A stretch of DNA of 50,870 bases from a virus (IMGVR_UViG_3300042561_000324:1-50870), one strand, 5' to 3'; positions 18,556-47,801 are shown, counted from the stretch's first letter. The notes: generated from the sequence alone by a model not told the origin. Numbers and translations: made by a program.

Positions 18556-18556
18556 A

Positions 18557-18715
18557 ATGAATAATAAAAAAATCGCACTTGGACTTATATTGATTTCGTT
18601 TGCTTTTTTCATAATGGCATTCTTGACCGGATGCGAAACTCTCGGAGTATCCCTAGAAACACAATATGGTCGGTTCACCTATGAGCTACCTCAACCAACA
18701 GGAACAAAGAAATGA
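18557..18715 (+). CDS. Small lipoprotein (spanin-like)
   Basis: MNNKK, hydrophobic stretch, then lipobox LTGC. Confidence 0.6.
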   Translation: MNNKKIALGLILISFAFFIMAFLTGCETLGVSLETQYGRFTYELPQPTGTKK

Positions 18716-18885
18716 AAATCGTAAACATACTACTTGAACGGCTATCAGAGAATAGCACATGGCGCGGATTGATCCTAATCGCTACGGCGGTAGGAGTTAA
18801 GCTGGAACCAGAACTTCAAGAGTCCATCATCGTCGCAGGGATAGGACTCGTGGGACTCATCAACGTTATCCGCAAAGGAAAATGA
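18712..18885 (+). CDS. Putative holin (57 aa, missing from the ORF track)
   Basis: MKIVNILLERLSENSTWRGLILIATAVGV..SIIVAGIGLVGLINVIRKGK; two hydrophobic segments; ATGA overlaps on both sides. Confidence 0.7.
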   Translation: MKIVNILLERLSENSTWRGLILIATAVGVKLEPELQESIIVAGIGLVGLINVIRKGK

Positions 18886-19424: not shown

Positions 19425-19431
19425 ACGATAA
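19416..19431. promoter_or_regulatory. Dispersed palindrome TTATCGTAAACGATAA
   Basis: Contains a stop codon; 7 bp before the next ATG. Confidence 0.9.
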
Positions 19432-19438
19432 AAAACAA

Positions 19439-20443: not shown

Positions 20444-20446
20444 CCA

Positions 20447-20866
20447 ATGGCAAACTGGAACAAAATAGTAGAGGCTCACAACAAGGAGCATTACAAATGG
20501 CCGAGCGGTTGGGATTCCCGCGAAACAATTGCTGAACAATTGGAGTGCAGTCCAGAAAGAGTTGCAGAACAATTGTCATCTGCCATTAAAGGTGGACAAG
20601 TAGAAAAGAAAGCTATCACTTATTGGAACGAAGAACTGAAAAGAAAGGTTACTGTCTTCGGTTATCGACCAGTTCAAAAAGACAAGCCGACCAAAGAGAA
20701 AGTATCGTTAACGATAAAATGGCCGCCAGCAGAAGGAATACGAGTATCGCGTAGAGACAATCCTAAGAGCAAAGGAACACATATTGGCAAAGGAAAAATA
20801 GCTTGGGATAATGGTCATGTTACAGAACCCAAGGGAAGCACAATCCAAAAAATAATTCTTGCTTAA
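20447..20866 (+). CDS. Hypothetical protein (possible N-terminal HTH)
   Basis: SRETIAEQLECSPERVAEQL; contains palindrome variant GTATCGTTAACGATAA at 20702-20717. Confidence 0.65.
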   Translation: MANWNKIVEAHNKEHYKWPSGWDSRETIAEQLECSPERVAEQLSSAIKGGQVEKKAITYWNEELKRKVTVFGYRPVQKDKPTKEKVSLTIKWPPAEGIRVSRRDNPKSKGTHIGKGKIAWDNGHVTEPKGSTIQKIILA

Positions 20867-20896
20867 AGAATAAAAAACAATCAATATATTAAAAAT

Positions 20897-23185
20897 ATGA
20901 GTTGCGGAAATTCCAGAAGTTCTAAATGCAATCCGTGCGGCCCAAGTGAGGCGGCAATGAATGAGATTGCCAACAAGGCTGCATACTACGCAAGAATCGC
21001 TCAATATGCTTCAGATGGATTCAGCCAAGTTTATCTTGGTGCAAAAGATATCGCTCCAACTACAGACAATAATGGGAATCCATTAATTGTTGGAGCATTG
21101 TATTTTAATACAGTAAGTGACATATTGTATGTTTGGGATGGGGCGGCATGGGATATTGCAACTAATTTTAACGAAACAACTCCATTTATTGCAAATGGAA
21201 CAACGACTTCCAGAAACCTTGTAACAAGGATGTCTGATATTATCAATGTAAAGGACTTCGGTGCAGTTGGTGATGGAGTTGCGGACGATACTGCCGCGAT
21301 TAATGCAGCATTTCTATATGCGCAGAACAAAGGATATGGATCAATTTATTTTCCTTATGGAACATATTATATTACAGAAGGAGCGTGCATAGAAAGTCCT
21401 GATGCCTACGATGCTTCTCAAAATATTGGGCCATTCAGTATTGAAGGATATGGTGCAACAATTAAAATGACAAACGCTTTTGTAACTAGCGTTTCTCCTA
21501 TTAATGGGATTGTAAAAAGTGCCATTTTAATTGCTGGAGTAACAAATATAACTATTAGTGGATTATCGTTTCAAGGAACAGGAACATCTTTATCTACCGC
21601 AACAACTGCGACAAGATATAATACAGCCGATCCGGGTCATAAAGGAGATGGAATAAGGATTCAAGGATATAAAAAAGCCATTGTGCAAGATTGTGTATTT
21701 AACGGATTAAACCTTGGAATCATCATTAACGATGATGACCCCAGAAGTCCATTGCCTATCCCTCCAACCAAACCAATTGAAAGTGGAATTTATAGCATTT
21801 GCAATAATAGATTCTTTGCAAACTGGCAATCTTTATCATTTACATATGGTGGAAATTCAAATGGAACAATCTATGGTAATTATTTTGAACAAACTGTTAC
21901 AAAATTAATTAGCCATTATGGAGATTCACAAACAACAGATCAATTGTCAGGCCCAAGTCATATTATTACAAATAATAACTGGAAAAATTGTCCATCTGTC
22001 ATTATTGGACTAGATAATTGTATTATTGCAAATAATATTTTTGATACTGTAATAGGTGGAATTTGGACAAATGTTGGAAGTGATTATCCAAATACAAACT
22101 TTAATTATAATATTGTAAATTACGCTATTAATAACAATGTATTTACATACACAAACAAATGGACAACAGCATCTGAAGCAAACATGGTTCCAGTCTGTTC
22201 ATGGCTTGTTGGAATTGATACAATTTATACAGCAGGGCAAACAAGTCTCTATAAAAATATCAATTTTATGGATAATTATATTAGAACAGATGCTTCTAAT
22301 TCTAGTACTGCTGGCATTATTCAATTAACAACAACAAATGCTAAAACAGTTTTTGAAAATTTAAATATTTCAAATAACGAAATTACAATTACTTCAAATC
22401 AAGGAGTATTTATTTATAGTGAAATCGCAGCGTCTGATGTGCAATTTAATTTCTCTACAAAAATCATAGGAAATACATTTAGGCGCGGAGAAGGAGCTAC
22501 ATCGGGGGGAACGGCGAATTTTGAATTTACACTTGTTAATAATACATTTATTGGAGGAAGCACAACATCCACATTGCAAGTGATTAATAATGCATATTAT
22601 GGATCATTGGCTACAAATAGCATTTTCAATATATCAAGATTTGCTCAATGCATTTTAAGTGATAACCAACTTTATCTTGGTGAATCCGCTGCCACTTTTG
22701 CTCCTATATTTAGAACATTGGGATGTCCTCGTATAACTGCAAACTCAAATTATGTTGTTAGAAATGGTTCAGCAAATAATGGAGTATTAATTGGGTTTGG
22801 AGTTGTCGATGTAAACGATCAGCCACTAATGGAAAAAGTTCGCATTAAAACAAGCCAAAATTCTATGTCAAGGGGAGCCGCTGGTATTTATCCAATTACA
22901 CCTTTTACATTTGCATCTGGTTATGGATTGATTGAAAGCGTAAATGATGAAATCACTGTTGATCCAACTATTCAATGGATGCCAGCAATTGCAAATGTGG
23001 ACGCATTTTGTGTTGTTAATCCGACAACAAGGAATCTAGCAACAACAGGAGGGATTACAGCTGCAAATGCATTAACGGTTGTTCCACAAGGATATTCTTG
23101 CAAAACACGATTGGCTACAGCAGGAAGCGCATCTGCATATAGACTCGGAAGTGCATCATGGCTTAACGAGGGAGCATTGTCGTAA
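20897..23185 (+). CDS. Tailspike / beta-helix depolymerase
   Basis: INVKDFGAVGDGVADDTAAINAA..IYFPYGTY pectate-lyase-3-like start, followed by Asn/Ile-rich beta-helix repeats. Confidence 0.85.
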   Translation: MSCGNSRSSKCNPCGPSEAAMNEIANKAAYYARIAQYASDGFSQVYLGAKDIAPTTDNNGNPLIVGALYFNTVSDILYVWDGAAWDIATNFNETTPFIANGTTTSRNLVTRMSDIINVKDFGAVGDGVADDTAAINAAFLYAQNKGYGSIYFPYGTYYITEGACIESPDAYDASQNIGPFSIEGYGATIKMTNAFVTSVSPINGIVKSAILIAGVTNITISGLSFQGTGTSLSTATTATRYNTADPGHKGDGIRIQGYKKAIVQDCVFNGLNLGIIINDDDPRSPLPIPPTKPIESGIYSICNNRFFANWQSLSFTYGGNSNGTIYGNYFEQTVTKLISHYGDSQTTDQLSGPSHIITNNNWKNCPSVIIGLDNCIIANNIFDTVIGGIWTNVGSDYPNTNFNYNIVNYAINNNVFTYTNKWTTASEANMVPVCSWLVGIDTIYTAGQTSLYKNINFMDNYIRTDASNSSTAGIIQLTTTNAKTVFENLNISNNEITITSNQGVFIYSEIAASDVQFNFSTKIIGNTFRRGEGATSGGTANFEFTLVNNTFIGGSTTSTLQVINNAYYGSLATNSIFNISRFAQCILSDNQLYLGESAATFAPIFRTLGCPRITANSNYVVRNGSANNGVLIGFGVVDVNDQPLMEKVRIKTSQNSMSRGAAGIYPITPFTFASGYGLIESVNDEITVDPTIQWMPAIANVDAFCVVNPTTRNLATTGGITAANALTVVPQGYSCKTRLATAGSASAYRLGSASWLNEGALS

Positions 23186-28257: not shown

Positions 28258-29073
28258 ATGATTGACGAGCCAATAGAACAACGATATTCAAAAAATAAAA
28301 GGTGTTTCCATGTTTGGGCAGCAGTTGCTGGTGGAACAATTGCCGCAGTAGGAGCGGTGGCTGGAGGCGTTATGTCTAGTCAAGCTGCTGGAAAACAAGC
28401 TGGTGCTTCTAAAAAGGCTCAAAAGAATTTCGAGGCAAGGGTAAAAGAAGCAAATATCGAAACTCCTCAACAACTAATTCAGAATATTGAGCAGTATTAT
28501 CCGGGCGCAACCAGCCAAAGGCAACAAGCTGCAAATATCATCCAGCAAAGAATGAGCGGACAACCACTCACTCAAGAGCAAATTGATTTTGTTCAGAGGC
28601 AAACCGCCGAAGCATTTGGTGGTGGATACAGACCAATGCTTGGGAAAACGCCGGGAATGTCAGTAGCTCAATCGCAGTTCGCTCGTAACCTTAGCCTTTT
28701 ATCCACAGATGTTGCAACTCAAGGAGTGAACATGGCATATGATTGGAACAACCTAGCACAAAGTTTTATGCAAAGAGCAGGAGAAATAAACCTCGGAGCC
28801 GCTGGAGGTCAATATCAAGCGGCATCAAACGCAGCAGCGGCAAGATACGCGGCTGACTTGGCTCCAGCCCAAGCGATCATGGGAACCACTCAAGCGATTG
28901 GTGGAGGACTAATGTCTTACGGGACATCAGCAATGATGGCTAACGCAATTGGCGGTGGAGCAGGTGGAGCCAAGGGTGCTATTACTGGAGCTGGAGGTCA
29001 GCAATATGTGCCAGCGACCAGCGCAACTGGTGGACAATTCTATCGTCCACTTACTGGATCAATTTACGGATAG
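28258..29073 (+). CDS. Ejection (internal virion) protein
   Basis: Gly/Ala hydrophobic N-terminus, Q-rich helices; first of three genes of increasing size. Confidence 0.6.
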   Translation: MIDEPIEQRYSKNKRCFHVWAAVAGGTIAAVGAVAGGVMSSQAAGKQAGASKKAQKNFEARVKEANIETPQQLIQNIEQYYPGATSQRQQAANIIQQRMSGQPLTQEQIDFVQRQTAEAFGGGYRPMLGKTPGMSVAQSQFARNLSLLSTDVATQGVNMAYDWNNLAQSFMQRAGEINLGAAGGQYQAASNAAAARYAADLAPAQAIMGTTQAIGGGLMSYGTSAMMANAIGGGAGGAKGAITGAGGQQYVPATSATGGQFYRPLTGSIYG

Positions 29074-29098
29074 TGGATTAATTTACGAAAGGTAATAT

Positions 29099-30454
29099 AT
29101 GGCAGTCATCCCACAAATCAGCTATGGAATCCCCGCTATGGATTATGGCGCGTTGACAAAAAGTCTTTCTGATCTTGGTCAACAAGTGGGTCAAGCACTT
29201 GCTGCAAAAGAATACCAGAAGCAAGCGCAAGCTGCTCTTCCAGCATTTCAAGAAGCCATGAAGTCATTTGAATCGGGGGATAGCAGTGGTGGGTATTCAG
29301 CAATCGTATCGCTTGCAGCGCAAAATCAATCTAACCCATACGTTCAAAACCTAGCAAATCTGGCAATGATGGGCGGTAAGGCTATTGATGATAATAGGTA
29401 TAAAACAATGCGGGTAGCAGCATCAGCTCTGCGGGCTGGCGGTGGATTGCCATCTATGAGTTCACAAGAAGATGTATTACTTGGAGGAGAAGATGGCGGC
29501 GGATACCAAGTCCCAGATGAAGCCACGCCAATTAGCGGTGGAGCAGGAACAGAAATGGATGCTATAATAGTTGATGGTGAGCAATTGCCAACCAAACAGC
29601 CTCAAGCAACAGAAGAAGAAGAAATCGGAAATCTAACTGACATCTTGAAGAAAAAGGCTGCTGAAATTTCAAATCCATCATATAGGAAAGCGATTGAAGA
29701 TTCTGCTGAAAATCCCCCTACAGTAACTGAATTTAAAGATTTACGTAGATTGGCTGAACAATATTTGGCTCAAGACGAAAATCAGAAGAAGAACTATCTA
29801 CAAAAAAACACGGTAGATATTGCAAGCAATCAAGATGTTATAGCAAACTCTCCTCGCCTTGCAAAATTCTATGAGTTTCCAAATGCTGAAAGGATTCTAG
29901 GACAAGGCATCCGTGGAATGTATCTAAAGCCACCAGTTGAAGCTGAATCAATTGATAAAAAAACTGGTAAGCCAATAATGAAAGCTAAACGAGATGTTGT
30001 TGAGAACTTAAATAAAGTAACAGGAGCCGCAATCAATGTGCTAAATGAAGGAAAAGTTGGAGACTTCATTGCAAATACAGGCGGAGTGTTTAATGCCGAT
30101 TTAACCACAGTAGATGAGCCTGTGCTTGATGAAGATGGTGATGAAATTGGTGAATCAAGATCAGTAACATATATCTTCGACAAGCGAAACCAAAATCGCA
30201 GAATCAAGATTCCAGCAGGCTCGCAAGGAAATGATATTATCGCGGCATTTAGGCAAGTAGCATTGTCTCCGGTTTCAATTCAAGATATTAATAATCGAAA
30301 CGGCATTGCGCAGCTTGTAAGGGTTCCTGTTAAAACACCAGAAGGCCCGACAAGAGAAGGAGCTAAAATGATTCCGCAAGCAGCGCAAGCATCGCAACCA
30401 GTAGATAGAAAGTCTTTACTTGAACAAGCATCCGCTATATTGAATAGGCGATGA
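29099..30454 (+). CDS. Ejection (internal virion) protein
   Basis: Position and composition. Confidence 0.55.
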   Translation: MAVIPQISYGIPAMDYGALTKSLSDLGQQVGQALAAKEYQKQAQAALPAFQEAMKSFESGDSSGGYSAIVSLAAQNQSNPYVQNLANLAMMGGKAIDDNRYKTMRVAASALRAGGGLPSMSSQEDVLLGGEDGGGYQVPDEATPISGGAGTEMDAIIVDGEQLPTKQPQATEEEEIGNLTDILKKKAAEISNPSYRKAIEDSAENPPTVTEFKDLRRLAEQYLAQDENQKKNYLQKNTVDIASNQDVIANSPRLAKFYEFPNAERILGQGIRGMYLKPPVEAESIDKKTGKPIMKAKRDVVENLNKVTGAAINVLNEGKVGDFIANTGGVFNADLTTVDEPVLDEDGDEIGESRSVTYIFDKRNQNRRIKIPAGSQGNDIIAAFRQVALSPVSIQDINNRNGIAQLVRVPVKTPEGPTREGAKMIPQAAQASQPVDRKSLLEQASAILNRR

Positions 30455-33400
30455 ATCTGTCTCTTGAAAAACTCAAAGAGGCGCGAGATGCTGGAATCCC
30501 AGATGATGTTATTTGGGAGGCAGCGGCTAGTGCTGAACCGAAGTTCAATGAACTGAAAAATAATAACATACCTCTTGATGTAGCATTTGAAGCATTTCAA
30601 GGATTTAAACCAGTAGGCACTTCTTTTACTGACAAGCTACAGACAGCTACAGAAGAACTGGAGATGACTATTGCGGATATTCCGCTTGCTCTGGGCGAAG
30701 CATTTTCTGGATTAACAAAAACTGCTCCAGCATCTTTCTATGCAGCCAAAGAAGGACTCGCAAGACCAGACCAATACTCAAAAGAAGCCCTTGCTGCATT
30801 TGATACTCAACGCGAATACTTCAAGCAATTAGAACAACAAGCTAAAACAAGAGAAGCTGAAGGTAAGTCAACTGCTGTTGGTGAAGCGATTCGCGGAGCG
30901 GGGCAAAGCCTTGGGTTTACTGTTGCTGGCATGGCTCCCGCTATTGCTGGTGGAGCGATAACAGGCGCGGCGGCGAGCGCACTATTTCCCCCTGCTGCAT
31001 CTGCAACTATTCCTATTGGTGCTATTGCTGGAGGTATCGGATCAATGGTTGCGTCTGCACCAGTTTCATATCGAATGGCAGGCGGACAATTCCTGTATGA
31101 TGCTTTTAAATCTTTAGAAGAAAGCAAAGGAAGTCCACTTACTGAAGAAGAGAAAACAAAAGCATACAATGAACTTCTTCCTATCGCGCAGAATACAGCA
31201 TTGTGGGAAGCCGGGCCAGAGGCTATCGGAAATGCAGTTCAACTTGGCGCATTGAAATATGCCTTTGGATTTGGAAAGAAAGCGGCAACAAATGTAGCAG
31301 GCCAAGCAATTCAAAAAGCAAATGATACTTTGTTGAAAAAAGTAGGGGCAGTTGCTGGAGGACAAGTAGTTGAACTTGCTGGTGAAACAATTACTCAAAC
31401 ACAGCAAGGCGCAGACCAAGCAAAGATGGAACAATATGTTAAGACTGGTTCTACCGCTGGTGCGCCTGACGAATACCAAGGTCTGGCTGGAGCGGTAAAA
31501 GCATTCAAGGAAGTTGCTCCTACTACATTGGCATTGGGTGCTATTACCGCAGGTGCGGGTGGGGCAGTAAAGGTTGTTGGCATGGGTGGAAAACAAGTTG
31601 GCAAAGTATTATTTTCCAAACCTAAAACTCCAGAGCAAATCGCTGAAGATCAAATAAACGATGCCGCTAATAGGGTAGCAAACGATCTTTCAATTTCACC
31701 AGACGATACGCAAGCCAACAATCTTAACCAACAGATTAAGGCATTGTCTGAAGTTCAAGAGATACGCAAGCAAACATTGGCCGCGATTGAACCCACAAGC
31801 AGAGAAGCACAAACGCTTAAACTTGATATTGCCGAAGGCGAGTCAATGCTTGGTGAGCTTAACCAAAATCTCACAAAGCTGACCGGATTATCGGAACCGA
31901 TAACAGAAGCCGAGCGTCAGCAAGCCGAGTTAGCCAAGGCGATAGTAGAAGAACCAGCCCCAACTGTTAAGGAATCCTTGACAGTTCAGCCTGCACAAGC
32001 TGCACCCGCGCCAGTAGAACAAGTAGTCACGCCACCAGTAGAAGATGTTAAAAAACCAAACATAGAAATCAAAGAAGTTGAAAATGGATTTCAAGTTCTT
32101 GTTGATGGAACTCCGCAATCTGACACGATTTGGGCTACACGCGAAGCCGCCTCACAAGTAGCAAAATCAGAGTATGAATACGAGATGCGGAAAGCAAAAA
32201 AGAAAGCACCCCGCGCAATATCGGAAATGATAATATCTACCTCGCCTGATGGAGATGTTATTTATGAACCTAAAATAAGTGGAGAAATTGGAGATATTAT
32301 ATCAATTAAAGGTGCAATATCTGCATCCAAAGAAGATGGAGAATTTCCTGCAAGAGAAACTCCAAAAGATTATTACAAGCAGGGTGATGTATATCGTCAT
32401 ATTGACGATCCAAGATTCAAAGTTTCTGATACCAATGAAGAAGGCATTGTAAAACTTGCCGAACAAGCAACTGAAAAACTTACAAATAAAGATAATTCAG
32501 CAGCAATTAACGGAATTGAACAACACATGGGAGCATTCAGCAATCCTCAAGCTGCTACAAAAGCTCTCAATCAATATTCTGAAGTTCTTAAACCAATTCA
32601 AGAAGCGCACCGCTCGCTTTTGAGACAGAAATACGGAGATACTGTTACTGTATATAGAGCAGTTGATCCAAACTTTACTCCAAGTCCAAATAGAAATGTT
32701 TCCAGTTGGACTCTTTCAAAAGAAAATGTTGATAAGTTATATTTTGGATTAAAGGATCGCGTGACTCTTACCAAGACAGTCAAGGTAGATGACATTCAAT
32801 TCATGCATAACTGGAGAGAGGCAGAAGTTCTACTGCGAGATGACGCTAAAGATATCGCAGAACCCGCGCCAGTTGAGCCAATCACTCCCGCGCCAGTCAC
32901 CGAGCAAGCTGCGCCAGCAGAAGCTCCCGCGCCAGAGGTTGCGAAACCAACTGGCGGTGTTGATTATTACAAGCAACTTGGTGAACAAGATGCGTTAGAC
33001 ACTAATCGCAAAAAGAAGCGTTCAGTTCCGCAGAACTTTAAACTGGCTTATGAAAATGGATGGTCAGCGGCAAAAAGAAAAGCCAGAGAAGAAGCTCCCA
33101 CCCCCGCAGTATCGGAAACGATAACGGAGCCAAAACTCGGAGAAAAAGGCGGTGTTCTAATCCCTACCAAAGAAGACGTTCGATACAACCCACTTGGATA
33201 CGACATCGCTGATGTTGTTGAAGATATTAAGCAGGGCAAGACAAGCACTCCGCTTAAAGCAGTAAACCAAGTAATCAAAGAATCTACTGATCTTCGCAAG
33301 CGTGTTGCTGCTGAATCTACTCGTCGCCAACAACCGAGAAAGATGGGCAAGGCCGCGATATTGGAGCGAATCGCAAGGGAACGCAGTGCTGGCAACATCA

Positions 33401-36400
33401 ACGAGAATACAGCAAAGGCACTCACAGACTTCATCAATAGGGTTAATGACGATGCGATATGGGATACAGCTATTTCCATCCGCGCAAAGGGAGTCAGCAA
33501 CTATGACTTCGCTGATAACCTCGTCACATTCTTTTTAAACCAAGACAAGGGTGACTTCGGCGCATCTGTAGGCATCCATGAGTTCTGGCACGGGCTGTCT
33601 CGCTTCCTGCCAGACGCTGAAGTTGAGAAGATCAACAATGATTATACCAAAGAACTGGCAGATTACCTTAAAAAGAATCCGTGGTTCTTGGCTTTTGTGG
33701 GAAGATACTCACTGACTCCAGAGCAGTTTGAGGCATACAAGAAGTTCAACCCTAAAGAGGCTGAAACCAAACTCATCCCAGTCAAGGACGAGCAGGGCAA
33801 CATTGTAAAATACAAGATTAAGTTCGATAAGGACAACTACCGCTACATCATGCTGGATGAGTTCATCGCAGAGAAGATGACTGACCTTGTTCTTGGTAAG
33901 CAACAAGAGCCTAATACATTTTTAGGAAAACTCGCCAAGGTATTACGCGAGTTCATGGCATTGATTAAAGCTCGCCTTGGGGTTGATCCATACGAGAAGT
34001 TCTACCAAGCAGTCACATCCACAAACGGCAAGCTCGTTCTTCAGAGACAATCTGGTGTCGCTCCAGCAATGCAGATTTACGATCCAGTTGAATACGATTA
34101 CTCAACTCGCAAGATGGCGGTAGAACCCGAACAGGGTGATGCCCCAATAAAACCAGAAGCAAAAACAATTACAGAAGGATTGGTTCAAGGAATTGATATT
34201 GGAAAAGAAACCAATATGCCAATCAACAATAAGATTGAGAGTCACATTAAGAACTTTGCTTTTGTCCGTGGTATCTTTGAATCTGCGAGCGATAGATTGC
34301 GTAGGGCAAAGTTCACTAAACTGGCTACAGCTATTGATGACTACTACGATCAAGCTCAACGCCGACTTGGTTTCGCCAACAAGATTCTCCTTCCAGCATT
34401 CGAGGAGTATTCCAAGCAATCAAAAGCAACCAAGGCAAAGATTGATGAAGAGGTCAAAATGTTCTTTGCGGCACAAGAAAACAAGCGAGATACCGCTGAA
34501 TTCTTTGATGACTTGAATCCAATTACGCAGAAGATCGTTACTGCTTGGCAGAAGTTTGGTGAAGAATCTGGAAAAGAAAACCAAAGGATCGGGATTAAAG
34601 TATATGATAAGGGTTTGCAGAGATGGAGACCAATTGGAAGAGTGGATAAGTTTTGGCCTCGCGTTCTAAAGCCAGAGTATAAACGAGCATTGATGGAACC
34701 GGACAAGTATCAGAAAGAATACAACGAGATTGTAGAAGCACTGATGAAGTCTGGGAGAATTGAGAATCCAGAAGAAGCTGAAGTATTTATTTCTGAATAT
34801 GAAGGAACAGGCAGTAAGAACGATTATTTCTCTGGTATAGAAACGGCTCGCGGACAAGCATTCCCAGAAGAACTATACGATTACTCAATGCAAGTGATGA
34901 CGGACTATGCCGCTAGATGGGCGCAGCATAGTAGCCGAATCGAACAATTCGGTCAGAAACTTGGAGAGAATTCAATGACTCTGTGGGATAAGTCAAGAGC
35001 ATCAACAAGAGATCGTAGGACGATTGACTACATTACGGCAGCACAAGAACGAGTCGAAGGATACTATCCGAATGATCCGATTGTAAAAGGCATGGCAACG
35101 CTGAACATTTGGTCAACTGGGCCGCAGCTTGGAAATCCCGCTTCATCCATGTTGAACTTCTTTGGTGGAACAACTCTCAACGCCATGGTTGGACAACCGG
35201 GAGCGTTTTCAAGTTATCTTTCATCTTTTGTGGAACTCCGCAAACTTGGCAAAGAACTCAAAGATGCGAGAGAAAAAGGTATCGTATCCCGTGATTTGAT
35301 GAATATAGTTGGAGATCATCAAGCTGTTCTTGAATACAACCGCATTGCTCAAGCGGGACAAAAAACTACTGACTTCTTGTTGAAGTGGTCTGGGTTTACA
35401 CCAGTAGAACAAATGGTGAGAACTCAAAGTATGATTATCGGAAAATCATTTTTGAGAAAAACACTTTCGAGCTTATCCAAGAATCCCAACAGTTCATTTT
35501 CTAAACGGGCATTAACATGGTTGAACCGAAACAACATTGACGCTGACAAGCTGATCGTTGAAAAAGGTTCTGGGCCAGAGACGGACAAACTGCTCCGTTA
35601 CTTTGCCAATATCTCACAGGGTAGTTACACGATTGCTCAAACTCCAATCTTCATAGATACACCTATCGGAAGATTCCTTTTCAAATATCAGAAGTTTTCT
35701 ACGCAAGTAATGCGTCAAAGCTGGAAGAATACATTTGAGCCAGCATGGAAGGCAGTCACAAACAAGAACGAGACGCTTCAGCTTCCAGACCCAACACGGC
35801 AATTGCTATATCGTTTAAGGTTGGCGGAGGCGAAGGAGCTTGGTGACAATCGTAAGATTACCTTGGACGAGATACCCAAGAAGGTAACGAAAGCGGAAGG
35901 AAAAGCACTCACTATTATTCCGGTGATGATGTGGCTTGGTGCTGCTTACGTTGGCGGCGAAGTTATCCTTCGTATGCGCGATATGCTCTTCGGCGTTCTG
36001 ATGAAAGGGCCAAGCTACGAAGATATCATTCGTGCCTTCGAGGATGACGAAGACGATGACGAGCTTTACCTAGCCCTTGAACGAGCATGGTATAATTTGA
36101 TTGGCATGGGTGCGCTTGGACTCATCGGAAACTACGCACAGTTCTTCATGGATTGGCAGGATCGTGAGCGAGTAAAAAACCCACTTGATCCACCAGCACT
36201 TTCCATATTCAAAGAAACCGCAACATTCATTCAGAATGCAGTAGACCAAGGCACGATTACAGCAGGAGATATTAACAACTACCTTAATCGGACGCTTTCT
36301 GGATACCGAGTTCTCCAGCGAGCATATCAAACAACTGCGAGTTGGCTTGGATATTCAAAAGCTCCAACTGTAGCAGAAGAGATGTTCAGAAGAGAGGCTG

Positions 36401-36807
36401 CTGTAATTAACAAGTATGCTCGTCGATGGGCTGAAAGCGCAGGATTGGAATACAGAACCAAGCGACCAATGGATATTGCGCCAAGCAAAATGACACCAAT
36501 CAATCGTGAGATTGCAAGCTACCTTCAGCGCGGAGAGCCGGGTGCAGCAGTGGCGTATGCAAAAGAGTATTTGAACTCGCTTCCAAAGAAAGAACGAGAA
36601 AACGCAATTCAAAGCATGGAGTCTGGAGCAAGGTTTCGCCAACCATTCCGATTGGGTAACGGGCCAATGGATAAATCAGAGAAGGAAGCATTCACGAAAT
36701 GGCTGAAAGAAAAAGTCAGCAAGGAAGATTTTGATAAATTCCAAAAGCTGGATAAGGACTACAAAAAATCATACAATATGTTTTTGAATGGTCTGCCAAA
36801 CAAATAA
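30451..36807 (+). CDS. Giant ejection / polyvalent protein with ART-like and zincin-like domains
   Basis: 2118 aa; VYR..SSWT..EAE (ADP-ribosyltransferase R-S-E pattern) and HEFWH..DEFIAE (zincin); palindromes at 31888, 32218 and 33109. Confidence 0.75.
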   Translation: MNLSLEKLKEARDAGIPDDVIWEAAASAEPKFNELKNNNIPLDVAFEAFQGFKPVGTSFTDKLQTATEELEMTIADIPLALGEAFSGLTKTAPASFYAAKEGLARPDQYSKEALAAFDTQREYFKQLEQQAKTREAEGKSTAVGEAIRGAGQSLGFTVAGMAPAIAGGAITGAAASALFPPAASATIPIGAIAGGIGSMVASAPVSYRMAGGQFLYDAFKSLEESKGSPLTEEEKTKAYNELLPIAQNTALWEAGPEAIGNAVQLGALKYAFGFGKKAATNVAGQAIQKANDTLLKKVGAVAGGQVVELAGETITQTQQGADQAKMEQYVKTGSTAGAPDEYQGLAGAVKAFKEVAPTTLALGAITAGAGGAVKVVGMGGKQVGKVLFSKPKTPEQIAEDQINDAANRVANDLSISPDDTQANNLNQQIKALSEVQEIRKQTLAAIEPTSREAQTLKLDIAEGESMLGELNQNLTKLTGLSEPITEAERQQAELAKAIVEEPAPTVKESLTVQPAQAAPAPVEQVVTPPVEDVKKPNIEIKEVENGFQVLVDGTPQSDTIWATREAASQVAKSEYEYEMRKAKKKAPRAISEMIISTSPDGDVIYEPKISGEIGDIISIKGAISASKEDGEFPARETPKDYYKQGDVYRHIDDPRFKVSDTNEEGIVKLAEQATEKLTNKDNSAAINGIEQHMGAFSNPQAATKALNQYSEVLKPIQEAHRSLLRQKYGDTVTVYRAVDPNFTPSPNRNVSSWTLSKENVDKLYFGLKDRVTLTKTVKVDDIQFMHNWREAEVLLRDDAKDIAEPAPVEPITPAPVTEQAAPAEAPAPEVAKPTGGVDYYKQLGEQDALDTNRKKKRSVPQNFKLAYENGWSAAKRKAREEAPTPAVSETITEPKLGEKGGVLIPTKEDVRYNPLGYDIADVVEDIKQGKTSTPLKAVNQVIKESTDLRKRVAAESTRRQQPRKMGKAAILERIARERSAGNINENTAKALTDFINRVNDDAIWDTAISIRAKGVSNYDFADNLVTFFLNQDKGDFGASVGIHEFWHGLSRFLPDAEVEKINNDYTKELADYLKKNPWFLAFVGRYSLTPEQFEAYKKFNPKEAETKLIPVKDEQGNIVKYKIKFDKDNYRYIMLDEFIAEKMTDLVLGKQQEPNTFLGKLAKVLREFMALIKARLGVDPYEKFYQAVTSTNGKLVLQRQSGVAPAMQIYDPVEYDYSTRKMAVEPEQGDAPIKPEAKTITEGLVQGIDIGKETNMPINNKIESHIKNFAFVRGIFESASDRLRRAKFTKLATAIDDYYDQAQRRLGFANKILLPAFEEYSKQSKATKAKIDEEVKMFFAAQENKRDTAEFFDDLNPITQKIVTAWQKFGEESGKENQRIGIKVYDKGLQRWRPIGRVDKFWPRVLKPEYKRALMEPDKYQKEYNEIVEALMKSGRIENPEEAEVFISEYEGTGSKNDYFSGIETARGQAFPEELYDYSMQVMTDYAARWAQHSSRIEQFGQKLGENSMTLWDKSRASTRDRRTIDYITAAQERVEGYYPNDPIVKGMATLNIWSTGPQLGNPASSMLNFFGGTTLNAMVGQPGAFSSYLSSFVELRKLGKELKDAREKGIVSRDLMNIVGDHQAVLEYNRIAQAGQKTTDFLLKWSGFTPVEQMVRTQSMIIGKSFLRKTLSSLSKNPNSSFSKRALTWLNRNNIDADKLIVEKGSGPETDKLLRYFANISQGSYTIAQTPIFIDTPIGRFLFKYQKFSTQVMRQSWKNTFEPAWKAVTNKNETLQLPDPTRQLLYRLRLAEAKELGDNRKITLDEIPKKVTKAEGKALTIIPVMMWLGAAYVGGEVILRMRDMLFGVLMKGPSYEDIIRAFEDDEDDDELYLALERAWYNLIGMGALGLIGNYAQFFMDWQDRERVKNPLDPPALSIFKETATFIQNAVDQGTITAGDINNYLNRTLSGYRVLQRAYQTTASWLGYSKAPTVAEEMFRREAAVINKYARRWAESAGLEYRTKRPMDIAPSKMTPINREIASYLQRGEPGAAVAYAKEYLNSLPKKERENAIQSMESGARFRQPFRLGNGPMDKSEKEAFTKWLKEKVSKEDFDKFQKLDKDYKKSYNMFLNGLPNK

Positions 36808-39002: not shown

Positions 39003-39977
39003 ATGAAAAAGAAAGAACTAGAATTGTTTAGCCCAACTCAAGAGGGAGTCCTTGTCCCTCTGTCCACCTACCTCCGTCACATGGGGGAGTTCGTAAAAGA
39101 CGAATGGCCGGGGATCACGATCACCGAGACCCACATTAAGAAGGCGTGGAGCAAGCTCCAGAAGAACGAATATCTGGATGACGATGCGCCAGATGAAATG
39201 CTGGAGATGTATGAGCGTATGTCCGCCGACTGGGACATGGCTAAAGAGATGGAAGAAGAGCGTCAGAATGTAGATGAATACAAACCAGAGCCAATCACGG
39301 CCACACTGGAGCCAAAGAACGAATCCCTCGCCCTTGTGGAGAGCGTTAAAAACGGATTGGAATTGTCCTCCTTCACGCAGAAGTTCGACATCGGGCAGGG
39401 CATGACGCAATGCGTTCCCAAAGGTAAGGTAGAGATGAAAGACTGGGTGGCGGCATTCGCCTTCGGTCTGACTCTGGAAAGCGGAGCGCAATGGATCATC
39501 GGAGATTCGGTGGTAGCACTAGAGAATGGTGGGCATGAAGATGTAGTCAACCAACTCTGCTCCAACTTCAAGAAGTCCTACTCGACTGTCTCTGGATACG
39601 CTAGGGCTTGCCGAGCCTTCCCTACTGATAAGCGTGATCCAATGCTTCCGTTCACAGTCTACCGAGAGATTGGCAACGCTAACTTCGGGGATGATAAGAC
39701 CAACAAGAAGAAGCAAGACGAGCTTCTTGAGGCGGCGAAGACAGAGAAGCTATCCTCAACAGAGGTTCGCAACCGAGTTCGCCATGAGCAAGGTAAAGAC
39801 GATAAGCCATCCGGTCATCGTTACCTGCTCCTCAATGTCGGGAACTTCAGTAACTCCGAAGTCCTCCGCAATATGCCAGAGGAAGTCCAAGAACACCAAC
39901 TGCTGATCGACCTTGGAGACAAGTCATGGTTCGATCCAGCCGAAGGTGAGTGGCTGAAATTCTTGAAGGAACAATGA
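39003..39977 (+). CDS. LmbU-like DNA-binding protein
   Basis: AQWIIGD..KSYSTVSGYARACRAFP..R.PMLPFTVYREI..LLEAA..LSSTEVR follows the LmbU-family pattern as I recall it. Confidence 0.55.
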   Translation: MKKKELELFSPTQEGVLVPLSTYLRHMGEFVKDEWPGITITETHIKKAWSKLQKNEYLDDDAPDEMLEMYERMSADWDMAKEMEEERQNVDEYKPEPITATLEPKNESLALVESVKNGLELSSFTQKFDIGQGMTQCVPKGKVEMKDWVAAFAFGLTLESGAQWIIGDSVVALENGGHEDVVNQLCSNFKKSYSTVSGYARACRAFPTDKRDPMLPFTVYREIGNANFGDDKTNKKKQDELLEAAKTEKLSSTEVRNRVRHEQGKDDKPSGHRYLLLNVGNFSNSEVLRNMPEEVQEHQLLIDLGDKSWFDPAEGEWLKFLKEQ

Positions 39978-40228
39978 TTCAAAAAATCTTAACCAAGCTA
40001 TGCGTGTTCTCATCTGAACAACTCATAGGTATTGCAAACAAAGCGTTGAATGATAGGCAGGAAATCTTGGAGAGATCAGAGAAAGAGAAGGCGAGACTCC
40101 AGATAATCAACTCACGCTTGCTGGTAAGGCTTGCGATGACAGAGAGAGAACGCAACGAAGCTCAAGCAGAAGTGCAAAGATTAACTAATTTAGAAATAGC
40201 AAGACAACAAAACAAAGAAAACAAATAA
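39974..40228 (+). CDS. Hypothetical coiled-coil protein
   Basis: ATGA overlap; ERERNEA motif also seen in 50220-50432. Confidence 0.6.
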   Translation: MIQKILTKLCVFSSEQLIGIANKALNDRQEILERSEKEKARLQIINSRLLVRLAMTERERNEAQAEVQRLTNLEIARQQNKENK

Positions 40229-40230
40229 TC

Positions 40231-40509
40231 ATGTCAGAACCAACACAACAAAACGAAACCTCGAAAGCAGTTCTTGAAGCGTTCACGTTCATCAAGTCAG
40301 CCGACGAGACACTAAACGAACGAGTCCATGCAATGGCAAGCCTGTTGCACACGGCGGCAATGATGGTAATCAAATCAGAATCCCGCAAGGGTGAAGGGTT
40401 TGAGGCTATCCGCTACTTGGAAATGGCGTTCCTATACTACACCCAAGCACAATTCCGCAAACGCTTCGACAAGCAGGAGGAAGAGGAAGCTCCACGAATC
40501 ATCAGCTAA
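40231..40509 (+). CDS. Hypothetical protein
   Basis: 92-aa ORF closing the operon. Confidence 0.7.
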   Translation: MSEPTQQNETSKAVLEAFTFIKSADETLNERVHAMASLLHTAAMMVIKSESRKGEGFEAIRYLEMAFLYYTQAQFRKRFDKQEEEEAPRIIS

Positions 40510-40510
40510 A

Positions 40511-40526
40511 GTATCGTAACCGATAA
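40511..40526. promoter_or_regulatory. Dispersed palindrome GTATCGTAACCGATAA
   Basis: 1 bp after a stop; 7 bp before TTGACA (40534). Confidence 0.85.
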
Positions 40527-40533
40527 AAAGTAT

Positions 40534-40561
40534 TTGACATTAGCTTTCCATTCGCTAGAGT
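40534..40561 (+). promoter_or_regulatory. Sigma70-like promoter facing an ORF-free region
   Basis: TTGACA, 16-bp spacer, TAGAGT. Confidence 0.6.
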
Positions 40562-40565
40562 GCTT

Positions 40566-41062
40566 GTATCCAATCAAGTTCTAGCCGACTTGGGAGACTA
40601 ATTTTCAAACTGAAAAATGGGTCTGTTGTAGTCGGCTAGCTACGACAGGCCCAATTTCTTTGCCACCATTGGATCGTGTAATCGACGGGGATGCGTGAAG
40701 GACGCACCGAGACATAGGTCTGCAAATTTCGACGAAGGGATGGAGATAGAACGGCAATGACAATCCTGCTATCTTAATAGGCCAGCAATGGCGACTTCCG
40801 ATCAGGCTACGATAACAGCCAAGTGTAGGCAAAGGACAGCCATCGCACGAGGATCGGTTAAGCGAAAGGTGACTACGCTCAGACGAAACGTATGATTCAT
40901 TCGGCAAGTTTTCCCAAATTTTCTTGGGAGACTTGTCGCTCTGGTTCGGTCTCACCGAAACGCAGGAGATTCATTGATCTCCGAGTAGAATATATTCTGA
41001 ATAGTTTCAGATTGGTTTAGATAACAAAAAAACCAGAAAGGAATTTCTTCCAATCTGGTTTT
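40566..41062 (+). ncRNA. Candidate large structured ncRNA
   Basis: Lies between promoter and terminator, no convincing ORF, many stems with G-U pairs on the plus strand. Confidence 0.45.
41029..41062. terminator. Probable bidirectional terminator
   Basis: AAAACCAGA..TCTGGTTTT between convergent units. Confidence 0.6.
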
Positions 41063-41082
41063 AAGTTTAAGTGAAACTGGTT

Positions 41083-42711
41083 TTAAATCAGATTCTCTTC
41101 TTCATCTTTTGGAGCTAGTGAGATAGTCCCGTCAATTTCTCCATCGTTCAGCGTGTCCATACGCTTTAGCTTCTCGTCTAGCTTTTCGCAGATGGATTCC
41201 TCGATAGGAACACCCGCCGCGTAGATGAGATACTGGATCGACTTGGACTTACCGCCTGCCCTGTGGACTCGACCCAATACTTGTTTGAGATCGAACACGC
41301 TAGGCGAAGGCATGATTAGCGCAACCCGTGAGTGATTGCCATTGAGATCGTGGAGGTTCAAACCTTCCCGCGATGCCTGTATAATCCCAATAATGACTCT
41401 CGACTTATCATTCTGGAACGAATCAATCTTGCCTCTACGCTCAATCTCGTTCTGTCCTCCGTAGATGGCGCAATCGGTCTTGAGTTCTTCCATGAGCCAT
41501 TCACGGGTCTCGGTGTAGTTCACCGCGATGAAGACAGAGTTACCTTCTTCGATTAGATCACGCGCCATTGCCGCCACCGCTGGAGCCTTGAGCATTTCGA
41601 TTCTCTGTCTTGCTCTAGTCTGTTCTGCTAGGACATTTGCCGAGAAATTTTCCTGCATCCGCAACTCTTCGATTCGGTTGCAAAGGTCTTCATACTCATT
41701 GGCAATCTTCTTTGCGTTATCCATGTCGAAGGCTTTCGCCTTGATGAGCGTTTCGGGGAACGCATCGCCAAGGTCAGAGTGCCTCAACCGATTACCCTTT
41801 TCGGGGTAGATTCGGCTATGGAGTTTCTTCAATACTGAATTGCCTCCTGTGAACTGCATTCCGAAGCGGGTCTTCCTGCACCCGTTCTGTGATAGGAATC
41901 GGAAGTAGTCCTTCCCACCTTGGTGAAGGCCGAGGAACTGCCCGATTGCCCACAACTTTGTAGGATCGTCGGCAATGGTAGCAGAGAGAGCAATCGCAGG
42001 GATGTTCTGGATAACCGAATCACGGACTAGGAAAGCGTTCTGGGTAGCTTCACCTTTGCCTCTGTGAACTTCATCGAACACTAGCAGAACATCTTCGGGC
42101 AGCATGAAGCGGAAGGACTTTTTATTATCATCCGTCCAGCGTCCCATCTGACTCTTGCCAGTTTTGGCCCATTCCCATCCGCAGATTTCAAACACCTCGA
42201 CGCCCATCATTTTCGCGGCGCGATGCCAGTCTGTTGTGATAGGTTTGGGGCAGACTACCGCAACCCGCTTGCCAAGCTCACGGGCGATGCCGAGGGCGCA
42301 GAAGGTTTTTCCTACACCTGTGGAATGTCCGAGCAAGACTCGATTGTATTTATTCATCGAAGCAACACCCATCTGGACGGAGGTTTGCTGGTATTCAAAC
42401 AAACCTTCGGGGTGGAGAAGCGGAATCAGATCAAGCTCGGCGACCGCTTCGACTTGGTTATCGGAAACGATTATCTGCTTGAACTTGAGGTCTTCCGTTG
42501 ACCACCAAGACAAACCCCACTCTTCGCGGAACTTGCCTAGGGTGATCCCGGCTTTAGACATCTGCTCTTTGAAAAGTTCTTTGTCCTCGCGGTAGACCTT
42601 CCAAAACTGGTCGGTGATCGGAGCCTTCTTTAGAAGCCGAACTCCGCGTTTAGTGTTTAGCTGAATGGGATGCGACCATTCAACTGTTGCCATCAAATCG
42701 TGGATGTTCAT
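41083..42711 (-). CDS. SF2 helicase (SNF2/DEAH-like)
   Basis: STGVGKT, FDEVH, LSAT, EGLNL, QVLGRVHRAG; contains palindrome variant TTATCGGAAACGATTA at 42458-42473. Confidence 0.9.
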   Translation of the reverse strand: MNIHDLMATVEWSHPIQLNTKRGVRLLKKAPITDQFWKVYREDKELFKEQMSKAGITLGKFREEWGLSWWSTEDLKFKQIIVSDNQVEAVAELDLIPLLHPEGLFEYQQTSVQMGVASMNKYNRVLLGHSTGVGKTFCALGIARELGKRVAVVCPKPITTDWHRAAKMMGVEVFEICGWEWAKTGKSQMGRWTDDNKKSFRFMLPEDVLLVFDEVHRGKGEATQNAFLVRDSVIQNIPAIALSATIADDPTKLWAIGQFLGLHQGGKDYFRFLSQNGCRKTRFGMQFTGGNSVLKKLHSRIYPEKGNRLRHSDLGDAFPETLIKAKAFDMDNAKKIANEYEDLCNRIEELRMQENFSANVLAEQTRARQRIEMLKAPAVAAMARDLIEEGNSVFIAVNYTETREWLMEELKTDCAIYGGQNEIERRGKIDSFQNDKSRVIIGIIQASREGLNLHDLNGNHSRVALIMPSPSVFDLKQVLGRVHRAGGKSKSIQYLIYAAGVPIEESICEKLDEKLKRMDTLNDGEIDGTISLAPKDEEENLI

Positions 42712-43286
42712 TTTTCGATTTCAGAAATGAGTTGAGCAAGTTGCCCTGCTGTCAATTCACAAGGGCGACGAATGATAACCTTCTTACCTCTCACTTGGTA
42801 GAGAGCAGAAGGCGATTGAAGAACATCTTTTATTTCAGCAATGCTACGCTTGTCTTCAAGGTAAGCTCTTTGCGCTCCAATAGACCTGACTTGATCGCCG
42901 TCGAATGCTTGCTTGCATTGTGCGGTTGTCATGTTTTCTGGCTTAACCATGAGAGTTGAGGATTCCTTTCCTTGAATGACAAGCAACTCAACAGAACCCT
43001 CAATGATTCGTTTTTGCTCGGAGTATGGCAAACGAATTAGATGACGGGCCGCTGGATAGTCTGCCACCAATAGGCGAGGGAATAATTGCTTACGGCCTAA
43101 TTGCTCAAAGCGCGTCACAATATCTTCAGTCAGAAATTCCGAGGCTTCTGCAATTTCTTGAATCGTCATGTTCTGGTTATCCAAAAGGTTGACGATGATT
43201 TCTCCTGCTTTTGACCAGCACTCAATGCCTTGAGCAACGAGGCTGACGAATTCATTTACTTGGTTGTTTTGTATTTCGGTATTCAT
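42708..43286 (-). CDS. Hypothetical protein (possible DNA-binding)
   Basis: 192 aa; MTIQEIAEASEFLTEDIVTRFEQLG HTH-like segment. Confidence 0.7.
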   Translation of the reverse strand: MNTEIQNNQVNEFVSLVAQGIECWSKAGEIIVNLLDNQNMTIQEIAEASEFLTEDIVTRFEQLGRKQLFPRLLVADYPAARHLIRLPYSEQKRIIEGSVELLVIQGKESSTLMVKPENMTTAQCKQAFDGDQVRSIGAQRAYLEDKRSIAEIKDVLQSPSALYQVRGKKVIIRRPCELTAGQLAQLISEIEK

Positions 43287-43291: not shown

Positions 43292-43963
43292 TTATTTGGT
43301 TTTGGTTTTATTCAGATGCGCTATTGCACCTAAAGTTTTGAAGAAAAGAATCGTTGATTCTTTAATTGGTTTAAGTTTTTTCAGTTTTCTGGCGGCGGAT
43401 TTTACGATTGATAATTTTGATATGAAATTATCTGAATCCATAAACTCGCGGTGATCTTTAATCCTATAAATTTCTGCAATTTGACCAGAAATAAATGCGG
43501 TTTTTAACTTTGCTGTAAATAGCTGATGATTCGGCCCGTCTCCCGCAATAAATATCCCATCTTTATTTTTTGGAATACGGCGAAAAATCCATGGACGAGT
43601 TGAATATGTAGATTCTTTAACCTCCCTCCATTGCCACACTAATCCGGTAGATGGACAGATGTATGGAGGATTGCAAACTTGAACTTCTGTAATCTCGCCA
43701 AGAAGTCTATTGTAATGGTCAACTGGCTCCTCAAAATCAGATGGCTCAACGCTTTTATCAAAAGCATAGTTAGACCTTCGATAAACCTTTTTATCTGGTG
43801 CGTTGATATAAGGCACAACCTCACTTGCTCGGAATGACGGGTATGGTGCGTCACCCCAATCTGATCTTGATCGTTGAGAGGCTACGCGCTCACCATCTTT
43901 GAATATTACCCTATCGTAATGAACATATGTGTTGGCAAACCTTGGGAATAGAATCAACTTCAT
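43292..43963 (-). CDS. Hypothetical protein
   Basis: 223-aa ORF in the operon. Confidence 0.7.
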   Translation of the reverse strand: MKLILFPRFANTYVHYDRVIFKDGERVASQRSRSDWGDAPYPSFRASEVVPYINAPDKKVYRRSNYAFDKSVEPSDFEEPVDHYNRLLGEITEVQVCNPPYICPSTGLVWQWREVKESTYSTRPWIFRRIPKNKDGIFIAGDGPNHQLFTAKLKTAFISGQIAEIYRIKDHREFMDSDNFISKLSIVKSAARKLKKLKPIKESTILFFKTLGAIAHLNKTKTK

Positions 43964-47252: not shown

Positions 47253-47801
47253 TTATTTCTCACAGGAGTAGATGGTATCTTGGAGTTTGAGTTTAGGGAT
47301 GATGGGGGTGGTGTAGCTATTATCTTGGAATGCTACTTTGTTTGTTGGTTGGATGGTTAGTCTTCCGTTGTCGAGTTCTATGAAGATGAATTCTTTGTCT
47401 TGGTCTGGGCTATCTGACCAGCCGTCGTTTAAGTGGGCGGTTGAGAATAGGTATTTACCTTTGTAGATGTTTTGGTTGATCTTTGCTGTTACTGGTAGCC
47501 CGGTTAGGATTTGGTTTTGTAGTATGGTAAAGTTGTATGAGTAGCAGTCCCAGAGTTGGGATTCTTCTATTCTCCATCCTTCTAGGGCGTTTTCTTTGAA
47601 TCTAACTGCGTTTGGTGGGATATTTCTGTAGAGTGCGCCGCCGTCTTTTAGGATGACGTTTATTCCCCATGCTCTGCTTGGTATACTAGTTATACCTACC
47701 CACATGGCTTCTACTGGCCCGATTGGCTTTTCGTGGGTATATTCGCTATCTATGTAGATGTAGCGGTGGGTTGGCAGTGCGCCGATTTTTGTGTAGTTCA
47801 T
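47253..47801 (-). CDS. Conserved-looking phage hypothetical protein
   Basis: 182 aa (GALYRNIPP, QLWDCYSY, LDNGRLTIQPTN); flanked by identical palindromes. Confidence 0.8.
   Translation of the reverse strand: MNYTKIGALPTHRYIYIDSEYTHEKPIGPVEAMWVGITSIPSRAWGINVILKDGGALYRNIPPNAVRFKENALEGWRIEESQLWDCYSYNFTILQNQILTGLPVTAKINQNIYKGKYLFSTAHLNDGWSDSPDQDKEFIFIELDNGRLTIQPTNKVAFQDNSYTTPIIPKLKLQDTIYSCEK

Follow-up and report, generated by a model that had tools for sequence, protein, structure and literature searches.

Conserved structure and fast-changing complementary loops in a non-coding RNA element of uncultured lake phages

The DNA studied here, called the window below, is IMGVR_UViG_3300042561_000324 over its whole length of 50,870 base pairs (bp). 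It is a complete virus record of the IMG/VR database, estimated to be 96% complete, and its genes are those of a tailed phage: a DnaB-like helicase, a replication initiator, a large terminase, tail fibre proteins, two exonucleases and a ferredoxin-like gene. No integrase or repressor was found among the 20 open reading frames (ORFs) scanned against PHROGs. Our subject is an element within a 573-bp gap between two convergent genes, p92 upstream and a helicase gene downstream. The element has a promoter, a 5' module of hairpins, a cargo domain, a variable 3' tail and a two-way terminator, and it is almost certainly a real gene for a structured non-coding RNA. This RNA is predicted to be about 495 nucleotides (nt) long and to lie on the plus strand, from a start near 40568, where stem P1 begins, to 41062, where the terminator ends. 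A preliminary description, made from the sequence of the window, had proposed a functional RNA of unknown class at this place, and all the stems, the promoter and the terminator that it listed are present at their positions.

Relatives of the locus were collected in two ways. Through the helicase 35 related viral loci were gathered, while pattern scans added two viral contigs carrying the element, 30 metagenome contigs and one contig from a metagenome-assembled genome (MAG). In total the element was found in 58 instances, corresponding to 38 distinct sequences with 65-86% identity to the window. The host clade of the element is uncultured lake phages. Searched against cultured phages, neither the element, nor the second type of cargo described below (type B), nor an 843-residue protein of the same genome (6259-8790) gave a match. 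Among public sequencing runs, 18 DNA runs contain at least half of the sampled words, and two RNA libraries contain small shares of them. A scan with the pattern of the 5' module returned 25 loci; nine new loci from the pattern scans (L082, L083, L084, L087-L092) turned out to be unrelated coding sequence. The MAG contig (L094) is filed under Woesearchaeota and carries the element. At 51,842 bp it is as long as a whole phage genome of the clade, and it is probably a phage contig binned with an archaeon.

The 501-nt stretch folds better than expected by chance on both strands (z = -4.90 and -4.86, with none of 100 shuffles as good). For the 35 full copies RNAalifold gives 90 pairs, 25 of them changing on both sides; one doubtful long-range helix was dropped, so that 86 pairs were counted. 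These are paired in 99.0% of the cells, compared with 93.9% in shuffles, and 24 of them change on both sides, a number that none of 500 shuffles reaches, while sliding the columns by 1-3 positions gives 2-5. The compensated cells over the 86 pairs amount to 141 (again 0 of 500 shuffles), and compensated changes are seen in helices H2, P3, P4, P5, P6, P6a, P6b, P6c and P7. The structure is thus supported by covariation among the 35-40 homologues. Further, several G-U pairs are invariant in the fold of the whole RNA. On the other strand each of them would be an A-C mismatch, and therefore the plus strand is the RNA. That mismatches resolve as G-U on the plus strand had been noticed in the window; it holds across the family, both here and in the loop pairing described below. 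A single-column covariation scan was swamped by shared ancestry and was not used.

The conservation concerns the structure and not a protein. Had the ORF at 40605-40955 been under purifying selection, the proposal of an RNA would have fallen; this ORF is intact in only one of 35 copies. Three ORFs lie over the element, two on the plus strand (35 and 42 codons) and one on the minus strand (116 codons, the one at 40605-40955), with 1, 5 and 1 intact copies out of 35, respectively, and the remaining copies have frame-breaking length differences and internal stops. The translation of the 116-codon ORF is 38-51% identical in relatives, whereas real genes reach 70-95%, and it has no match in Pfam. 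Nor does the RNA belong to a curated RNA family. Over the whole window no family of Rfam 15 matches at its gathering threshold, and the families tested include ROOL, GOLLD, OLE, C4/CI, group I and II introns, RNase P, tmRNA and 6S. Relaxing the limit to E <= 10 brings up five weak matches in the region 40300-41300. The best of them scores 23.9 bits, where its family requires 44; each lies on the minus strand, and three coincide in part with the terminator. No Rfam match was found on eight related loci, ARAGORN found neither tRNA nor tmRNA in the window, and our literature search found no description of the RNA. The earlier proposal of a functional RNA of unknown class is in this respect borne out.

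The signals at both ends are conserved as well. A promoter with the hexamers TTGACA and TAGAGT had been proposed for the element, and the layout TTGAC[A/T]-16 nt-TAnnnT-6 nt-ATCC is kept in all 40 copies compared (38 of type A, the type in the window, and 2 of type B), even though the 16-nt spacer has 22 different sequences among them. Fixed hexamers at a fixed spacing around a free spacer suggest a working sigma-70-type promoter. By itself the promoter scan does not exceed chance (4 sites, with 2.6 +/- 1.7 expected), and therefore the case for the promoter rests on the relatives. At the 3' end the two-way terminator is common to the type-B cassettes and to two cassettes with an HNH endonuclease gene. 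Just upstream of the promoter a palindrome had been described, and TATCG-N4-CGATA is indeed present, but as L029, a locus free of the cassette, has it too, it is part of the flank and not of the element.

The coordinates of all features are given in Table 1.

Table 1. Features of the element and its two neighbours. Positions refer to the window.
Feature	Position	Strand	Basis or remark
p92, upstream neighbour, 92 codons, no family match	40231-40509	+	ORF list, Pfam
-35 hexamer TTGACA	40534-40539	+	promoter scan; TTGACA 32/40, TTGACT 8/40
-10 hexamer TAGAGT (family pattern TAnnnT)	40556-40561	+	TAnnnT in 40/40
5' module closed by P1 (40568-40574 with 40668-40674)	40568-40674	+	covariation, model R1
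Hairpin H1, stem 40576-40579/40588-40591, loop 40580-40587	40576-40591	+	module model
Middle hairpin, TTTTCA/TGAAAA in the window, ATTTT/AAAAT in most copies	40602-40616	+	folds; 98.4% paired
Hairpin H2, 13 bp (40619-40631/40640-40652), loop 40632-40639	40619-40652	+	terminator scan, covariation
U-rich tract after H2	40655-40661	+	terminator scan flags 40618-40653 plus tail
Cargo domain, type A	40675-40960	+	per-helix covariation
P3	40682-40685/40729-40732, inner hairpin 40686-40709	+	
P4	40743-40749/40769-40775	+	
P5	40780-40784/40789-40793	+	
P6 (CCGATC/GATCGG)	40795-40803/40852-40862	+	encloses P6a 40805-40820 and P6b/c 40823-40848
P7 (CGGCAAGTTTTCCCAA/TTGGGAGACTTGTCG)	40902-40917/40924-40938	+	
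P8	40943-40945/40954-40956	+	
Candidate pseudoknot	40739-40741 with 40842-40844	+	100% paired
Variable 3' tail with lineage-specific hairpins GGAGAT/ATCTCC and TCTGAA/TTCAGA	40961-41025	+	alignment
Two-way terminator: A-run, stem CCAGA...TCTGG with inner GGAA/TTCC, T-run	41026-41062	.	sequence, fold, comparison
Helicase, downstream neighbour, 542 codons, ResIII/Helicase_C	41083-42711	-	ORF list, Pfam

Within the cargo, the stem CCGATC/GATCGG of the preliminary description corresponds to P6 and the stem CGGCAAGTTTTCCCAA/TTGGGAGACTTGTCG to P7, and both covary. The candidate pseudoknot has two pairs changed on both sides, in a single lineage only. The stems GGAGAT/ATCTCC and TCTGAA/TTCAGA fared less well: they are present in the window but not conserved, and they sit in the variable tail, the last ~65 nt before the terminator. 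The 11 copies of the L017 group have lost this tail, and in the L034 group another sequence takes its place. It had also been suggested that the doubled word CTTGGGAGACT allows alternative pairing; the second copy is peculiar to the subtype of the window, and most copies have TTTGGAGATCA instead. As a conserved alternative pairing the repeated word TTGGGAGACT was rejected because its 5' copy is not conserved.

The 5' module shows how the first hundred nucleotides are built. P1, proposed earlier as ATCCAAT (40568) with ATTGGAT (40668), is paired in 100% of the cells, and one of its pairs switches from A-U to G-C in 6 of 33 distinct rows. It joins the predicted 5' end to the segment immediately before the cargo, with H1, the middle hairpin and H2 inside. 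H1 has a 4-bp stem (AAGU/ACUU) and an 8-nt loop, of which bases 40581-40587 pair with bases 40633-40639 in the 8-nt loop of H2. The 13-bp hairpin noticed earlier at 40619/40640-40652 is H2 itself. It is paired in 98.6% of the cells; the lower 7 bp are invariant while the upper stem covaries, 4 of the 13 pairs changing on both sides.

The complementarity of CTAGCCGACT (40581-40590) to AGTCGGCTAG (40630-40639), first seen in the window, is a property of the family: 38 of 38 distinct copies keep 9-11 contiguous pairs. They do so with 15 different sequence combinations, and every pair that is not Watson-Crick is a G-U on the plus strand. In the 7-bp helix between the loops 92% of the cells are paired, and two-sided changes are seen at 4 of the pairs. 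Its unpaired cells are the six rows of a divergent allele, GGACGAGA/TCTCGTCC, which MAFFT sets in another register and which pair over 11 bp once they are in their own. As a control, the helix set one column off is only 36% paired. Taken together, the module model (P1, H1, the middle hairpin, H2 and the 7-bp loop helix) is 97.7% paired, with 10 pairs changed on both sides (reached by 1 of 500 shuffles) and 70 compensated cells (0 of 500).

A 5' pseudoknot or switch had been proposed from the window. The 5' pairing that this referred to is real, but a pair of hairpins whose loops are complementary describes it better, and an alternative long hairpin is possible as well. In the alternative hairpin the H1 region pairs with the loop of H2, and the partner of GGUCU in the 5' arm of H2 is AGAUC or AGACU. 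This hairpin is 95.7% paired across the family, and its inner helix 96.9%. In folds predicted for the nascent chain up to the H2 loop, the long hairpin is the best structure in five of five diverged copies (-23.5 to -27.3 kcal/mol), and H2 becomes better, by 5-10 kcal/mol, only after its 3' arm is present. An early fold that competes with a terminator would be the layout of an attenuator. We hold the anatomy as such, kissing loops or an alternative hairpin, to be very probable.

H2 itself has the layout of an intrinsic terminator, that is, a G+C-rich hairpin followed by a U-tract. The tail after H2 is T-rich in 40 of 40 copies (for instance TATTTTTTGCCA in 16 and AATTTTTTTGCC in 11), the T run being separated from the stem by one or two bases other than U (AA or TA). 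H2 with its U-tract thus looks like an intrinsic terminator, at which transcription may end.

The loops change faster than the rest of the module. Nucleotide diversity is 0.249 in the loop columns, compared with 0.068 in the stems and 0.157 in other unpaired columns. Among pairs of modules with identical backbones, 7 of 13 differ in their loops, by two or four bases and always with compensation (this count covers 32 of 40 rows, the 8 rows of the shifted allele being left out). Further, the loop alleles are almost uncoupled from the tree of the cargo. Along a tree built from the cargo columns (35 rows), the allele, with 17 states, changes 24 times; when the labels are shuffled, the mean is 27.6 changes and the lowest count 23. 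The same cargo occurs with different loop alleles in L024/L035, L017/L078, L018/L060, L059/L075 and L006/L079.

The element as a whole is optional. Both flanking genes are visible in 33 related loci, of which 12 contain type A, 14 are empty, 2 contain type B and 5 contain a protein gene. In the empty sites the gap is 63-112 bp and holds only a two-way terminator, whose hairpin (GCCCACCTTGG...TTGGTGGGC) differs from that of the cassettes. In type B the promoter and the 5' module are the same, but behind them come ~430 nt of unrelated non-coding sequence. Four of the protein-gene inserts are HNH endonucleases with their own promoter and folded leader, and the fifth is another reading frame, which is absent from the ORF list and seems to be cut at the end of the insert. 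The contents of the site vary among relatives, and therefore we regard it as a hotspot for the swapping of self-contained units. Being present or absent between conserved neighbours and carrying its own promoter and terminator, the cassette has the features of a moron.

The covariance model of the 5' module (R1) finds one copy per cassette-bearing genome (10 matches, 106-130 bits) and no further copy in the 1.02 Mb scanned. It also finds none in five complete or near-complete genomes with an empty site, in a genome with an HNH insert or in the genome with the other insert. When the 63 ORFs of the window were compared across genomes, none was present in all six type-A genomes and absent from all five empty-site genomes, so no dedicated phage protein travels with the RNA.

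The modules of type B are the same as those found in two type-A copies, L004 and L010. Apart from the terminator the two types of cargo have no common word longer than 9 nt, and by this word-level comparison they appear unrelated. For the type-B RNA the fold is moderately stronger than expected by chance (z = -2.61), and no Rfam family matches it. It is found at L005:5690-6125, at the same site in L031 and also in L086 and L093, with several GAAA-capped hairpins; by eye the copies of L005 and L031 are closely similar, with a few compensated differences.

Some other contents of the hotspot can be described here. The HNH genes are free-standing and have 206-308 codons (L002:5630-6560 and L032:5633-6567, on the minus strand of these loci); those in L026 and L030 have the opposite orientation. 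Their leader of ~170 nt is conserved and matches no Rfam family. Each gene has its own promoter-like TTGACC/TTGACA, and the leader has a hairpin loop, GUGAAACC, that is complementary to GGUUUCAC downstream. In L024 the 1.17 kb between p92 and the cassette hold three additional ORFs of 196, 80 and 115 codons. The last of them presumably resembles the QueD-type 6-carboxytetrahydropterin synthases, as we judge from its motif, which hints at a 7-deazaguanine DNA-modification module. Three small genes of the window close to the hotspot (39950-40228, 42708-43286 and 43292-43963) occur in only one of 15 related genomes, G004, and are further optional genes round the same junction.

How could such an RNA work? 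We favour, at a probability of roughly 0.35, a reading in which the leader takes its fold from the loop pairing, and read-through past H2 into the cargo would be controlled in this way. The pairing between the loops would be a sequence-coded recognition step that fixes this fold. In the growing chain, the H1 region would pair with the loop and the 5' arm of H2 to form the long alternative hairpin, which would delay the terminator-like H2 and let the polymerase continue into the cargo. An already existing RNA with the same loop allele could, we infer, compete for H1 in trans, and termination would then be favoured. The outcome would be an allele-specific feedback with the logic of the P4 CI RNA or of antisense attenuation in plasmids. 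The cargo would then work as an RNA, without a dedicated phage protein.

Several observations weigh against this loop-coded switch. The stem of H1 is 100% paired, with one-sided changes only, and the same is true of the changes in the inner helix of the alternative hairpin. When the 10-bp pairing and the top of H2 are in conflict, H2 stays compensated and the outer pairs break (L021, L024 and L059). Only about seven loop-loop pairs are therefore clearly under selection, and it is because the outer pairs yield to H2 that we describe the core as two hairpins with kissing loops. Part of the uncoupling between loops and cargo, perhaps much of it, could be due to recombination of whole modules, since the promoter spacers differ as well, and template switching between the two inverted segments could speed up compensation without selection. 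No second target of the H2 loop was found beyond chance in the window and eight other cassette genomes. P1 encloses H2 and the U-tract, as would also be expected if they were part of a stable folded domain and not a terminator. Finally, in the two RNA libraries the relatives of the element are contigs, not reads. They cover 40390-40712, 40763-40836, 40857-40997 and 41023-41068, and also both flanking genes; with possible carry-over of DNA they therefore give no verdict on transcription, ends or strand.

It is possible that the loops make a static tertiary contact instead. H1 and H2 would then kiss within one molecule and compact or stabilise the 5' end of a long-lived RNA, with no switch and no action in trans, and the loops would vary since complementarity alone matters. 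P1, H1, H2 and the seven loop pairs together fit 97.7% of the cells, and such a contact explains the roughly seven selected loop-loop pairs as well as the switch does. The outcome of the conflicts, in which the H2 stem beats the outer pairs of the long hairpin, is also as expected for it. P1 pairs the predicted 5' end, and a paired 5' end is a common feature of stable RNAs. It is less easily reconciled with the loop columns, which are the most variable class and yet always compensated, or with the lower half of H2 and the U-tract, which are invariant or strongly conserved and would be needless in a mere strut. The fold of the nascent chain, in addition, favours the alternative hairpin. Contacts between loops are common in large bacterial RNAs (PMC12286853).

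Self-assembly, in which the loops of H1 and H2 pair between different molecules to give dimers or rings, as in phi29 pRNA or in ROOL, GOLLD and OLE, is unlikely. The loop alleles would in this case prevent mixed assemblies among co-infecting relatives. What speaks for it is that complementary loops sit on two different hairpins in 15 allele pairs, that the alleles are uncoupled from the cargo and that no protein partner is inherited together with the RNA. There are also precedents: multimers of pRNA form through intermolecular kissing (PMC4201828), and covarying loop pairs of ROOL and GOLLD are intermolecular bridges (PMC12286853). Against it, the sequence permits the pairing inside one molecule, where a linker of 16 nt lets H2 reach H1, and the U-tract would be left without a role. 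In addition the RNA is dispensable, with 14 of 33 loci lacking any cassette, and so it is not an essential part of the motor like pRNA. Both the static contact and self-assembly stand close to the loop-coded switch.

Much less probable is an element that acts as DNA, such as a replication origin or a packaging or recombination site whose inverted repeats are read by proteins. It would suit the neighbouring replication genes (the helicase and an exonuclease), the fold z-score, which is equally strong on both strands, and the position in an insertion hotspot. But the mismatches in the loops are all G-U on the plus strand, where DNA or the opposite strand would have A-C, and a number of invariant G-U pairs point in the same direction. 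In addition, the promoter keeps its geometry and is followed by a terminator, close relatives lack the element, and the composition and skew profile of the window is uninformative, without an origin-like signal. The least probable reading is a small protein gene, or a type I toxin-antitoxin locus in a structured mRNA, which the three ORFs over the element might suggest; we rejected it as these are broken in most copies and have no Pfam match, and as the 116-codon ORF shows low translated identity, and for ORFs of at least 30 codons the coding reading is refuted.

That the loops form a self-recognition code is doubtful. The RNA of a putatively lytic phage would then regulate its own synthesis, or form an RNA-only multimer, only together with its own allele.

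The element can be compared with several known systems. Among the P4 CI and P1/P7 c4 RNAs, which are antisense immunity RNAs acting on their own strand, specificity differs between related elements through compensated changes. The phage element is unlike them in that it matches no Rfam model even at E <= 10 and has a covarying upstream partner only, a downstream site like seqC not being found in the window and eight cassette genomes. Instead of replication or antirepressor genes, a non-coding cargo lies downstream of its module; the 400 nt downstream contain no conserved ORF, which differs from the c4-type control of protein genes downstream, in the immunity region of a temperate element, by an RNA that RNase P releases. 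The likeness is that a loop of the folded RNA is predicted to pair here, as it does in P4, with a segment of the same transcript from the same promoter. In P4 this pairing controls termination: the processed CI RNA pairs with sites in its own transcript, which leads to premature termination (PMC4825925).

The phi29 pRNA has no sequence relation to the phage element, as the search of cultured phages gave no match. It is essential for packaging, whereas the phage element is optional, 14 of the 33 related loci being empty. With its 174 nt (PMC2241910) pRNA is about three times shorter. Alike is that both are non-coding phage RNAs with two complementary loops on different hairpins; those of pRNA pair between identical molecules (PMC4201828). 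ROOL, GOLLD and OLE are similar to the element as large multi-helix RNAs held by kissing loops, some of whose covarying loop pairs are intermolecular (PMC12286853). Their Rfam models do not match the phage element, which is smaller and limited to one phage clade, and whose 5' module is detachable and common to a second, unrelated cargo.

The antisense control of plasmids resembles the element in the recognition of one folded loop by another. In pT181 and in RNA I and RNA II of ColE1, recognition between loops chooses between a terminator and a read-through fold, and changes in the loops create specificity groups. The two RNAs of a plasmid antisense pair come from opposite strands of one DNA segment and are thus automatically complementary, whereas the loops of the phage element are on the same strand and must change together. 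In its proposed working the element comes fairly near to the antisense immunity RNAs and the kissing-loop circuits, and in its appearance to the large ornate RNAs. In general, the element is set apart from the known systems by having both loops on one strand of one RNA, by its detachable leader and by being an optional unit.

Elsewhere in the genome, a ferredoxin-like auxiliary gene (47253-47801, minus strand; PHROG 3704, E = 1.7e-27) is present in 8 of 15 relatives. The tail-fibre and tail-spike genes and an ORF of 2118 codons (30451-36807) lie in the regions 13077-23185 and 28258-36807, and have a counterpart in 0-1 of the 15 related genomes, while the remainder of the genome is common to the relatives. 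These two regions are probably the host-range region.

To our knowledge, large structured phage RNAs are few and almost none of them has a known job. The family described here offers a comparative set of ~40 natural variants, with two exchangeable cargos behind one leader, natural knock-outs in the form of the empty sites of sister phages, and 15 loop-swap alleles, which eases the design of experiments. Should the loop pair prove to be a specificity code, viruses would have a new means of distinguishing their own RNA from that of a relative, and the pair would provide a compact, programmable module for RNA-RNA recognition. If the code serves self-recognition, the leader would be an incompatibility system made of a single strand and a single RNA, placed before exchangeable effector RNAs of a new kind. 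The cargo, for its part, may be a ribozyme, decoy or scaffold of a new sort, provided that it needs no dedicated phage protein in order to act.

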